This document shows, one piece after another, positions 45,801-51,800 of a stretch of DNA of 64,000 bases. Position numbers: made by a program. The DNA is taken from assembly GCF_057098645.1 (NCBI RefSeq), contig NZ_CM169472.1; one strand, written 5' to 3'. How positions within the stretch are numbered: position 1 is the first letter of the stretch; every line of letters starts with the position of its first letter.

Positions 45801-48800
45801 GATATAACGTTGTCTCGCCTCCTGATACGGATCACCCACAAAACCGAGGTCATCCGCCGCATACCCCAGTCGGACACGCTCTTTTTCTTCCCCTTTCAGT
45901 CTGGACAGGGCCAGCTCACGCTCTGTTTTTGTCAGGGCACTCTGCTGTTTATCATCCAGAGTGGCCTGCGGCAGCCGTAACGGCACATTCACCAGTCCCT
46001 GCCGCTGCTGAAGCAGTTCATTACCCAGCCCCAGCAGACGGTTGAATTCCGTATGCTGACCGTTCATAACCAGCATGGACTGGTACACCTTATTCTGCTC
46101 TGCCGCCTGCTGACGAATTAACGCCACACGACGGTCTTCCAGCCCGGCAAGCACATCCTGAATGGACTGCGCTTTTTCCTGCATCTGTGCCAGACGGGAC
46201 TGCTCAACGGCAAGCTGCTCTGTTGCCTGAGCAAGCCCTTCCGTTACGGTCTTCACCGAGGTCAGATGGTTTATCATGAATCCGTCACCGGTCGTCCAGC
46301 CCGGGTTCGCCAGAACATACTGATATCCTGCGATTTTTTCCTGCAGGGATTTCACCCGACTGGCCTGTTCATCAATCAGCCGGTTCTGCTCTGTCAGCGC
46401 CGCCCGTGTTCGTCCTTCATTATCTGAGGCTTCAGGCAAAGACATTGACGGCGTTTTATGCGCGATTTCATCTATCGTCAGTGCATACTGGCGCGCAGAC
46501 TCCCTGGCCTGCTCCTGATTCTGGTACAGCGTGTACCATGCTGCAGCCCCCAGCATCACCAGTCCGGGTACGCCACCAACCAGCCCCAGCGCACCGCTCA
46601 TCAGACGTGAGCCCACCGCCGTTGTACTGTTCAGCGCATTCTGGGCGGCGCTTCTGGCAGCAATATTTCTGTTCAGGCGTTCCTGTGTGGCCACCAGACG
46701 GGCCTCTGCAGCAATCTGCATCTCCGTCCCGCGGGCTGCCGCCACGGCCTGCTGAGCACGGTACACGGCTGCCCTTGCCCGCGCCGTGGCAATCTGCGTT
46801 CCCCTGAACTGTGCTTCCGCCAGTGCAACTTCATTACGTGCAGCCGTCACAAGTCCTGCCGTGGCAGACATCGCTCCGGAGGCCATATTGCCAAAGTACC
46901 GGGCAACCCCGACGGCAACCAGCGCCCCCGCGGCTGTTGCCACATTATCAATATTACCGGCAACACCGTTCAGCACGCCGGAGAGCGTTTTCGTCGCTCC
47001 GCTGGCCTCATTCGCACCGCCCACCCAGGCCATAAAGGCGTTTTCCACCTTTGTGATCCCGTCAGAGACCGTTTCTGGCATGGCGGCATATTCATCACGC
47101 AATGTCCCCAGCTGGCTGATTAACGCGGGCACGACTTTATCCGCCGTCAGTTGACCATCGTCCGCCATCGCCTTCAGATCTTTACGGGCCACGCCCATGC
47201 CTGCAGCCAGTGCACGAATGATCCGGTCACCACTTTCATTGACCGAATTAAATTCCTCACCGCGCAACACACCCTGTGCCAGCGCCTGGCTGAACTGGGT
47301 GATCACCGAACCCGCCTCAGCCGTACTGGCACCGGAGATTTTCAGCCCCGTGGAAATGGCCTCCGTCACCTTCAGCACATCATCAGCACTGTAACCATAT
47401 TCACGCATCGAGGCAGCCGAACGGGCAAACAGGGCCGCATTATCCGAAAAAGCGGTACCTGTCCGCTGACTGATATCCATCAGCACTTTCTGTGATGACG
47501 AAAATTCATCGGATGACTGTGATGCCTGTTTCAGACGGGCATTTACGGAACTCCACTCATCCGCCAGTGAAATCAGGTGTCCGGAGGCAAAGGCACCGGC
47601 AAATGCGCCAGCCACTCCGACAGCAGAACCGCGAATTTCCGTCAACTGGCTGTTCAGTTCTGCCAGGGCGCGTCGCTGCTCCCGGGCTGCCGCAGCGGCC
47701 TGACGCCCGCCATTTTGCAGGGTCCGGTAATATTCACTGCCCATGCTGCAAAATGGCATCTGAATCGATCGCAGTTTGGCATTCGAATCGATCATGATTT
47801 GGCATCCATCTCCGATCACAGTTTGGCATCACAATCGATCACGATTTGGCATGCTTCCGATCATTGATTGGCATCCTGCCAGTCACTCCGGGAATTAACT
47901 CTTTTCACCACAGTCTCCATTGCCGTGTTTAAACCAGTGGAGACGTCAATGTCCAGAAAGAGAAAATCCAGGAGCACTATGGAAACCTGTTTTAAGATCC
48001 TTCAGCTCAAGTTCGACAAGAAGCTGACTAACCGTTGTATCGGACTGACGTTACACATCAGCGCCTCAACCGTTTTTGAGGTTCTTGCCCGCTTCAAAGC
48101 CTCTTCTCTGTCATGGCCATTACCTGCTGATATATCCCATGACACGCTGGAGAAACTCATTTTTCCGCCCAAAGACACCTTTGCATCAGAGCTTGTAATG
48201 CCTGACATGTTGTACTTCGATACGGAAATGAGAAAACCAGGTGTGACGCGGCAACTGTTGTGGATGGAATACAAGGCACAGGCGGGTAACAAAGCGATGG
48301 GATACTCGCACTTCTGCCGTTGCTACCGGGAGTGGAAAAAAACGCGACGTCTCTCCATGCGCCAGGAGCATCGTGCCGGCGAAAAGCTTTTTATCGACTT
48401 CTGTGGTCCTACGGTTCCTGTTATTAATCCGGACACCGGTGAGATACGCCGCGTGGCAATCTTCGTGGCCGTAATGGGGGCGTCCAACTATACCTACGTT
48501 GAAGCGTGCGAAGGTCAGGACATGATGTCATGGTTAAATGCCCACAGCCGTTGCCTGACCTTCCTGGGCGGCGTACCGAAGCTGCTCATCCCCGATAACC
48601 TCAGAAGCGCAGTGAAAAAGGCCGATCGATATGAGCCTGTCATCAACGACAGTTATCAGGCACTGGCTGAGCACTATGGCACGGTTATCATCCCGGCCCG
48701 ACCACGCAAACCTAAAGATAAACCAAAAGCAGAAAACGGCGTCCTCATCGTTGAACGATGGCTTCTTGCCCGCATCCGTAATGAAACCTTCCACACGCTC

Positions 48801-51800
48801 AGGGCGCTGAATGCGCGCCTTAGGGAGTTACTGACAGACATGAATAACCGGCCAATGAAGGGGTACGGCAATCAAACCCGTGCAGAACGCTTCCGCATAC
48901 TGGATGCGCCAGCACTCTCTCCGCTGCCTCTGGCACCTTATGAATACACGGAATACAAAGCTGTGAAGGTTGGCCCTGACTACCACGTTGAATATGCCCG
49001 TCACTGGTACTCCGTTCCACACGAACTGGTCGGTCAGCGTCTGTCACTGAAGGCGGGGCAGTCGGTGGTACAGCTCTGGCACAAGGGGCAGTGTGTGGCG
49101 CAACATCCGCGCAGCACACATGAATATAAACACACAACCAATCCGCTTCACATGCCAGAGCGCCACCGGCAGCACGGGACATGGACACCGGAACGCCTGA
49201 TCGAGCAGGGAAAACGTACGGGCCCGTCCACAGGCCGGGTGGTTGAATCCATGCTGAAGGCAAAACCCCATCCGGAACTGGCTTATCGTGCAGTTCTGGG
49301 GCTGCTGGCACTTCAGAAAAAATACGGCCCGGAACGGCTGGAAAAGGCCTGTTACGTTGCCCTGCACTATAACGCCCCTGACAGACGCTTTATCGACAAT
49401 CTGCTGCGTCACCATCGGGAGAACCTGGAGCTTCCATTATCCCGCCAGGGCGAACAACATCCGGCATATGCTTCAGAGCATGAAAACCTGCGTGGTCCGG
49501 GCTACTACCACTGACAGAAGGAACAACAGTATGAGTGATAACCTGTTAAACAAACTGACCCAACTGAAACTCCCGGCGATGGCCGGGAGCCTGATACGGC
49601 AGCGGGAAACGCCTCAGACCTACGACGAACTGTCGTTCGAGGAAAGGCTGACGCTGCTGGTTGATGACGAGCTTCTGAGCAGGGAAAACAGCCGTGTGGC
49701 ACGGTTGAGAAAAAATGCCGGCCTGAAATACCAGGCAACACCGGAAGGGCTGCGCTATCCGGCCTCAAGAGGTCTGCGGGCTGAACAGATGAGAGAACTG
49801 CTGAACGGCCACTACATAACCCACAGGAAAAACCTGCTGATAACCGGTCCGACAGGATGTGGCAAGAGCTGGATAGCCAATGCGCTGGGCGAACAGGCAT
49901 GTCGACAGAAACACAGCGTCCGGTACTGTAGAACCGGGCGATTACTGGAACAACTGGCTCAGGGACGTGTTGATGGCAGCTGGCTGAAATATCTGAAACA
50001 GTTGCAAAAAATACAGGTTCTAATCCTGGACGATCTGGGGCTGGAACAGTTAAGTAACGCCCAGTGTAATGACCTTCTGGAGCTCATAGAGGATCGTTAC
50101 GGACAAAGCAGCACGATAGTGGTAAGCCAGTTCCCGGTAGATAAATGGCATGGTCTGATGGAGAACCCAACAACAGCAGATGCCATCCTGGACAGACTGG
50201 TACATAACTCACACCGAGTGGTCCTTCAGGGAGAGTCACTGAGGAAAAATCCCCCGGTAGTGGAAAGCAGCGAAAAAACGCGTTAAAAAGCGGTAGAAAA
50301 AGTTAAGTTCCCGGTTGATCGAATGGATGCGAATCGCTGATCGGACTTCGATGCCAATCCGTGATCGAATAGAGCGGAATACGCACATGCGGGAAGCACG
50401 CTGGATCTCCGACTGGAATGACTGTGAATTTGCCGAAATTTTGATAATCAGTTCACGTAACGTCGCCATTAACCTTTCTCCGGGCGCAAAAAAACCGCCT
50501 CAGCGATTCTCATCATTTATGACTGTGCTGCAAGGCTCAGCGCGTCTTCCAGCGCCGCAAACGGATCCACCTCCGGCTTGTCCTCATCCTCTCCCCAGCA
50601 GAGCATGGCGTCCTTCAGTGCAACATTCACCCCCTGCGCCCCGAAAACCGCTTTCACGATCTGCGCATTACGGATATCCCCGCGCTCATCACCCAGCGGG
50701 GATATCCTGTCGAACTCCATCCACATCATCGCCTCGCTCGCACTCAGGCTGTGCCGCAGTTCGGATAAGGTGCGCCCCAGACGGAGCGCAAGTCGCATCA
50801 GAAAGCGAATTTCCGGGCGGGCTACTTTTTTCTGGCCGACTCTGCATCAGCGATCAGGTCCAGTGCCTGACGCAGCAAGCGGGCATGTACCGGACCATAG
50901 ACGGCCAGCACCTGCTCACGGTCGTCCGGAGTGAACACCCGCTGCAGGTCCGTATCACACAGAACATCGCAGAACAGCGTCACATCCGCTTCCAGATTAC
51001 GGCGAGTTTTCGCCACCACCGACAGGGTCTCGTCACCCGCATCACCGCCATCCAGCACTTCCCGCCACAGATACCAGGCCTCTGCCGAAGGCTCCCGCAG
51101 CACCACGCTGACATTTCCCCATTCCGGCACCTTCACCGTTTTATGACGGAACCCCGACAGCCTGGCCAGTGCCAGTGTTTTCAGATCTTTTGCCATAAGC
51201 CTTATCCGCCCGCACCATTAACCGTTACCGTACACGCGTCAGAGGTAATGCTCTGCGGCTGTTCTGCAGAATCCATTACCATGCAGGTATAAGCCCCCTT
51301 ATCACCTGACTGCGCATTGGCTTTACTGAAAGTGTCAGTAGTCTGTCCCTCGACCGGCTGACCATCCTTCTTCCAGGCGTATTTATAAGGCGGCGTTCCC
51401 CCGTTGACACTGACTGACATTGTCAGCAGCGCACCTGTATTCACGGTAAGTGTCTTCTCCGGATTTTTCATAAACGCCAGCGGTACCACATAAGAAACAG
51501 GCTTACCTTTCAGTCGCAGTGAGAACGTTGCAGCCACCACGCCGTTGGTACCGGATGACCAGGTGTGCTGACGCACTTCCGCCAGGAACTTAAAGCCCTT
51601 ACCGGACGGAAACTGCACCTTAAACGCATACACCGTGTCATTATCATAGGCATCACGCAGGGCATTCTGAGCCTGATTAAGATAAAAGTTGCCCGACATG
51701 GAAATCTCGGACGATGCGCCCAGACCGTTGATATTCTCCTGCTCTGTGGAGCAGAGCGTGGTCACATCAATATCCTGTTTCTGCCCGGCGGTGAACTGGA

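Follow-up and report, generated by a model that had tools for sequence, protein, structure and literature searches.

A complete IS21-family insertion sequence, ISSso4-like, interrupting the tape measure gene in a lambdoid prophage beside ssrA of Escherichia coli

An istA/istB gene pair lying among the tail genes of a prophage raises the question of whether it belongs to a complete insertion sequence (IS) and, if so, what exactly has been interrupted. We analyzed such a pair in a stretch of 64,000 nucleotides (nt) from assembly GCF_057098645.1, contig NZ_CM169472.1 (hereafter the window; all coordinates are positions in it), which comprises Escherichia coli chromosome (ffh, grpE, recN, and smpB) and a lambdoid prophage beside ssrA, running tail-first to the window end. 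An initial annotation had described an IS21-family element at 47760 to 50440, inserted between the tail chaperone and tape measure genes, that is, in the T-to-H junction. Our results indicate that a single complete, apparently active, and known IS21-family element (ISSso4-like) almost certainly transposed into the tape measure gene itself. No evidence contradicts the IS21-family identification.

The element and the short duplication that flanks it were delimited as follows.

47747 to 50385, plus strand: IS21-family insertion sequence (ISSso4-like), complete at 2,639 bp, bounded by the tips 5'-TGCAAAATGG...GGAATACGCA-3' (identical full-length copies, shared tips, and diverged relatives).
47742 to 47746, no strand: CATGC, left-hand copy of the duplicated target (direct reading).
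50386 to 50390, no strand: CATGC, right-hand copy of the duplicated target, in which the ATG of codon 28 of the tape measure gene is read on the minus strand (direct reading).

The left boundary reads ...CACTGCC CATGC / TGCAAAATGGCAT... and the right boundary ...GGAATACGCA / CATGC GGGAAGC..., and the tips have the form 5'-TG...CA-3', as in the IS21 family. The span first proposed was inexact at both ends (the left one missed by 13 nt and the right one overshot by 55 nt), and the check that it called for, a target duplication of 4 to 8 bp, yielded the 5-bp CATGC on both sides. For comparison of the boundaries, 15 additional copies of the element were retrieved with their flanks, including one from a plasmid of Shigella sonnei. 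All 15 shared both tips, 14 of them being 2,639 bp long and the S. sonnei copy 2,638 bp. In alignments with this relative (96.3% identity) and with a more distant one from an Enterobacter asburiae plasmid (83.5%), similarity started and stopped precisely at the tips, and the terminal regions were better conserved than the element as a whole (mean column identity of 91%, flanks included). At 12 of 14 other sites, the same element had its own duplication of 5 to 7 bp, with one site of 4 bp and one of 3 bp. Counting the window together with these sites (loci L001 to L004 and L007 to L016), the 15 copies had duplications of 5 bp in four cases, 6 bp in five, 7 bp in four (the S. sonnei relative among them), 4 bp in one, and 3 bp in one; the 3-bp site looks rearranged because two unrelated genes are joined there.

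The position of the element relative to the tail genes was established on the minus strand, on which the following features lie.

50822 to 51196, minus strand: tail assembly chaperone G (PF06222, 196 bits, full length; homologous prophages).
50517 to 50798, minus strand: tail assembly protein T (PF06223; annotation of homologous prophages).
50470 to 50516, minus strand: T-tape measure junction, 47 nt, intact (direct reading and homologous prophages).
50386 to 50469, minus strand: tape measure gene, 5' part (codons 1 to 28), reading on into the IS to give a 77-amino-acid product (open reading frame [ORF] at 50236 to 50469).
44583 to 47746, minus strand: tape measure gene, 3' part (codons 29 to 1080), plus the duplicated bases of codon 28 (restored frame).

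Gene T ends at 50517 and the ATG of the tape measure gene is at 50469, with the element inserted 84 nt inside the reading frame, after codon 28 of 1,080. Codons 1 to 28 (MATLRELIIKISANSQSFQSEIQRASRM) flank the IS on the right; on its left, the protein resumes with GSEYYRTLQ.... When the IS and one CATGC were removed in silico, a single frame of 1,080 amino acids without an internal stop was recovered. The restored protein matched the families Phage_HK97_TLTM, TMP_3, and Tape_meas_lam_C, and the restored gene had the same length as its 3,243-nt counterpart in E. coli O145 RM9872. We searched a reconstructed empty site of 1,000 bp in a collection of 5,426 complete E. coli genomes, and most of that length was matched in 1,244 genomes. 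The top matches (99.9%, in a single piece) were uninterrupted O145:H28 prophages in which the genes at this place are annotated as tape measure, T, and chaperone. This match in one piece verifies the empty site against prophages without the IS.

This evidence bears directly on the earlier placement of the element in the T-tape measure junction, a reading under which both genes would be whole and any effect would come only through polarity. Only 84 nt separate the right end of the IS from the start codon of the tape measure gene, and if the frame is left untranslated, such a position does resemble the junction. However, the 47-nt junction is intact, and codons 1 to 28 and those from 29 onward, once rejoined, restore the 1,080-amino-acid frame of uninterrupted length, leaving that placement with virtually no probability. 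For annotation, the tape measure gene is a pseudogene split by an IS, and the T-H junction is intact. The IS together with both flanks was found in none of the 5,426 complete genomes, and the insertion therefore appears to be specific to this strain or lineage, for which it could serve as a marker. The nearest matches to the flanks were in O145:H28-type strains and in strain Z1323HEC0422.

Between its tips, the element carries two genes in the plus orientation.

47979 to 49514, plus strand: istA, DDE transposase, 511 amino acids (NF033546, 284.6 bits; Pfam rve and Mu-transpos_C_2).
49531 to 50286, plus strand: istB, AAA+ helper ATPase, 251 amino acids (NF038214, 257.8 bits; PF01695 [IstB_IS21], 205.7 bits).

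The istA/istB pair recognized from the outset is well founded, with both models scoring above their curated NCBIfam cutoffs (160 bits for NF033546, the equivalog "IS21 family transposase," and 200 bits for NF038214, "IS21-like element helper ATPase IstB") and with concordant Pfam domains. The gene istB lies directly downstream of istA on the same strand, after a gap of 16 nt, and an alternative in-frame start of istA (ATG at 47949) would extend its product to 521 amino acids. Residues D140, D206, and E252 of IstA align opposite D124, D187, and E233 of the IstA of IS5376 (structures 8b4h and 8q4d), which are the catalytic residues of that protein (PMC11208146). IstB has a Walker A motif (GPTGCGKS) at residue 106 and a Walker B motif (LILDDLG) at residue 164, and it matches the structures of IS5376 IstB (8q3w, 8q4d, and 5bq5). 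As for existing database entries, IstA is identical to WP_045147483.1 as annotated in strain 3R, and the name given to this exact variant by the Prokaryotic Genome Annotation Pipeline (PGAP) is simply "IS21 family transposase," while IstB is identical to WP_001282653.1, which PGAP labels "IS21-like element ISSso4 family helper ATPase."

Both ends of the element carry repeats of a 17-bp motif.

47747 to 47874, plus strand: left terminal region, consisting of the tip TGCAAAATGGCAT and five direct copies of CGATCANNNWTTGGCAT (motif scan; conserved in the 83.5% identical E. asburiae relative).
50327 to 50385, minus strand: right terminal region, consisting of the tip TGCGTATTCCGC (as read on the minus strand) and two inverted copies of the 17-bp motif (motif scan; all but three positions identical in both relatives).

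We scanned both strands of the whole 64 kb for the motif, with one mismatch tolerated and 100 shuffles as a control. Seven copies were found, all of them at the element ends, against 0.07 expected, and seven were reached in 0 of the 100 shuffles. The left copies start on the plus strand at 47766, 47789, 47813, 47836, and 47858 (spacing of 23, 24, 23, and 22 nt), and the right copies are at 50367 to 50351 and 50343 to 50327 on the minus strand, with a degenerate third copy, in which CGATCA alone is retained, further inward than 50327. The first copy begins 19 to 20 nt from either tip, and the first two copies of each end are in register. The multicopy motifs paired with CGATCA and inverted between the ends, as first described, are thus present in the form CGATCA...TTGGCAT, five on the left (plus) and two on the right (minus). 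Members of the IS21 family have multiple L1/L2 and R1/R2 repeats, a terminal CA, and 5-bp duplications (PMC10122671 and PMC11208146), and the likening of the repeats here to the multiple transposase-binding repeats of IS21 termini is apt, given that they resemble L1/L2 and R1/R2. Protein models, tips, repeats, and duplication all agree with the assignment to this family. The left array, unusually long with five repeats as opposed to two on the right, might have a regulatory role besides the pairing of the ends; a single judgment covers this idea and that of an end-like sequence steering the insertion (see below), and jointly we regard them as very unlikely.

How widespread the element is was assessed with its exact span (47747 to 50385, 2,639 bp) as a query. 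Full-length copies (positions 1 to 2639) with 100% identity occur at many unrelated chromosomal and plasmid sites of E. coli. A near-complete copy, defined as at least 80% of the length covered, was present in 225 of the complete E. coli genomes, with a maximum of 34 matching places in one genome. A search of plasmids recovered the element from Escherichia, Salmonella, Shigella, Klebsiella, and further hosts. When one genome per species was scanned for the initial 30 nt of the left end, no exact match turned up, and the phage collection yielded no full copy but just fragments of 91 nt, which came from three records of Stx2 phages. Identical copies at unrelated sites, mostly with duplications of their own, and such numbers of places per genome are indirect signs of transposition. 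The S. sonnei plasmid copy (IstA and IstB identities of 97.7 and 97.2% at the amino acid level) has both genes labeled "ISSso4 family" by NCBI, and ISSso4 is a recognized IS21-family element known from plasmids such as pCT and from Citrobacter rodentium (PMC6361801 and PMC3072379).

Incomplete copies also exist, with numerous partial ones among the 1,921 E. coli records that match and among the plasmid matches, and the istA/istB pair of the window could in principle be such a dead fragment or a remnant without functional ends. Here, however, the copy is of full length and 100% identical to the multicopy elements, and the tips, the repeats, both reading frames, and the duplication are all present. 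Proper termini and a target duplication enclose the pair, and we consider it practically inconceivable that it is a remnant.

The exact variant has expanded strongly in some poultry-associated E. coli, and most of the 100% identical copies listed came from chicken isolates. Strain GF60 (NZ_CP172185.1) has it in 29 places on the chromosome, with further copies on all four plasmids. The presence of a multicopy IS variant in several poultry-associated E. coli genomes is of minor epidemiological interest.

In order to place the element among known systems, we compared it with three relatives. The S. sonnei copy of ISSso4 shares its size (2,638 versus 2,639 bp), its tips, the layout of istA (511 amino acids) and istB (251 amino acids), and the repeat arrays at both ends, and it differs in ca. 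4% of the nucleotides, in 12 of the 511 IstA residues, and in 7 of the 251 IstB residues. IS5376 of Geobacillus stearothermophilus, the structurally characterized model, is about 2.1 kb long, compared to 2.6 kb for the element described here. Both have a DDE IstA, an AAA+ IstB, a terminal CA, repeated end sites, and 5-bp duplications, but the similarity is distant (E value of about 1e-13 for IstA), the IstA of the window is ca. 100 amino acids longer (511 versus about 400), and IS5376 has two left repeats instead of five. The founding member of the family, IS21 of plasmid R68.45, has 2,131 bp and a 4-bp duplication. Its repeat sequence is unlike that of our element, with which it shares the two-gene organization and multiple terminal repeats (L1-L3/R1-R2), more numerous on the left than on the right (see PMC10122671). 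No tandem (IS21)2 junction was found in the window.

The IstA/IstB pathway has been established for IS5376 (PMC10122671 and PMC11208146), and it offers a model of how the insertion probably came about. The components of the element, its tips, the target duplication, and the interruption of the gene can all be read directly from the sequence. IstA tetramers (with D140, D206, and E252) would bind the repeated 17-bp sites and pair both ends, as in the IS21/IS5376 model. IstB decamers would, according to the same model, assemble on the target DNA, bend it, and activate IstA. The terminal CA-3'OH groups would then attack the target 5 bp apart, and gap repair would produce the CATGC duplication. The assignment of binding sites and the activity of the element are proposed by analogy with these systems.

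Several points weigh against parts of this reading. Duplications of 6 to 7 bp are commoner in the other copies, and the 5-bp stagger of the element is therefore not fixed; the spread of duplication lengths is too wide for a chance extension of a fixed 5-bp stagger. The name ISSso4-like is a probable one, derived from the NCBI label "ISSso4 family" and the 96.3% identity to the S. sonnei copy. In the same way, the 17-bp repeats are putative IstA-binding sites, by analogy, and the loss of tail function is predicted from the broken frame.

As to the consequence, the break in the tape measure frame falls after codon 28, and therefore no normal tape measure protein, and no tails, would be expected from this prophage gene. 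What is left at the 5' end is a chimera of 77 amino acids, composed of 28 native residues and 49 encoded by the IS, followed by a stop. The insertion had first been described as polar on the tape measure gene, which understated the effect, since the frame is physically split and the 28 native codons run into 49 IS codons and a stop. The polarity also claimed on the distal tail genes could not be established; the IS genes are antisense to the tail operon, and terminator-like sites on the antisense strand of the IS numbered 5 versus 3.5 expected, which is no excess. Late transcription of lambdoid phages is Q-antiterminated, and polarity is generally suppressed. Any polarity on the distal genes would be of little weight because gene J is already truncated by a second IS event (see below). 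The element is already known and catalogued, its consequence is an ordinary gene disruption in a defective prophage, and the finding has little significance beyond annotation.

A near-full-length tape measure protein might still be made through late transcripts crossing the IS, either from a 1,078-amino-acid ORF starting at GTG 47819 or from the duplicated Met28. The minus-strand frame does remain open for 24 codons into the left end of the IS, with in-frame ATGs that include Met28 in the duplication. However, no promoter-like site was detected on either strand between 47600 and 50600 (0 versus 2.3 expected), and by our reading these ATGs lack a Shine-Dalgarno sequence at a suitable spacing. 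Furthermore, any such transcript would need to run through 2.6 kb of antisense IS that is not translated, and the downstream tail genes are broken regardless. Together, these observations make residual synthesis of the protein very unlikely indeed.

We also considered whether the element had been directed to this site. An exact inverted copy of 11 nt of the left tip of the IS (TGCAAAATGGC) is found in the tape measure coding DNA, at 47710 to 47720 (versus 47747 to 47757 in the element), 26 nt outside the insertion point, and the match reaches 12 nt when the neighboring C from the duplication is counted. A tip match of 11 nt arose in 1 of 300 random trials. At the 14 other insertion sites, the best tip-like match was 9 nt, within chance, and because none of them exceeded this length, we treat the 11-nt match as a coincidence. 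That IstA bound at an end-like sequence might have steered the insertion falls under the joint, very low assessment given above for the regulatory role of the left array. Separately, a target site consensus, GCC(C)RTGC-like in the left flank, which appeared in the first four additional sites, was rejected, as nine sites retrieved with the IS alone had no clear consensus. The first four were a biased sample because they had been ranked with a query that contained the flank.

The insertion is one of four IS elements in this heavily decayed prophage (IS2, an IS629-like element, the IS21-family element, and an IS110-family element), of which the other three are listed below together with the integration neighbor.

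32746 to 33108: ssrA (transfer-messenger RNA), neighbor of the prophage integration.
About 33942 to 35273: IS2 (TnpA and TnpB models, 276 and 722 bits), just inside the ssrA-side end of the prophage.
37506 to 38817: IS629-like element of the IS3 family, 1,312 bp, inverted relative to the Z1323HEC0422 copy, with which it shares 100% identity.
60969 to 62165: IS110-family transposase gene, 398 amino acids, at the head/terminase end; the homologous position elsewhere is annotated as ISEc20 family.

Strain Z1323HEC0422 lacks IS2 in an otherwise 99.6 to 99.98% identical region, and PGAP labels its counterpart of 37506 to 38817 as an IS3 family transposase. Gene J (region 37300 to 40320) is truncated and runs into the IS629-like element, keeping profile positions 1 to 484 of 1163. 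Compared to Z1323HEC0422, J lacks its distal portion, lom is absent, and the tail fiber gene has lost most of its length, a pattern that looks like an IS-mediated deletion or inversion and would alone be sufficient for a tail defect.

These losses suggest that the insertion into the tape measure gene may have been functionally neutral, part of the decay of a prophage that was already tail defective rather than the event that inactivated it. In favor of neutrality are the cut in J and the missing remainder of J, lom, and fiber gene, as well as the presence of IS2 and the IS110-family element in the same prophage. On the other hand, the order of events is not readable from one sequence, and an IS that is 100% identical to active copies, in an insertion shared by no complete genome of the collection, fits a recent event. 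On balance, we find neutrality reasonably probable. It is compatible with the transposition of a complete ISSso4-like element into the tape measure gene, as it concerns only the consequence. In either case, the insertion and the three other IS elements document the IS-driven decay of an ssrA-integrated lambdoid prophage with nleG7.

The gene just mentioned, nleG7 (a type III effector), lies with a DinI-like gene at the tail-proximal end (35273 to 37506, by homology to Z1323HEC0422), which points to an E. coli background of the attaching-and-effacing or Shiga-toxigenic type. An antirepressor gene (Ant) and two Arc-family regulator genes, together resembling an immI-like module, interrupt the tail operon near its middle (about 41876 to 43400), located between the genes for the minor tail protein L and a C40 peptidase (K-like), as judged by homology to loci L005 (3630 to 5288) and L006 (22332 to 23990).

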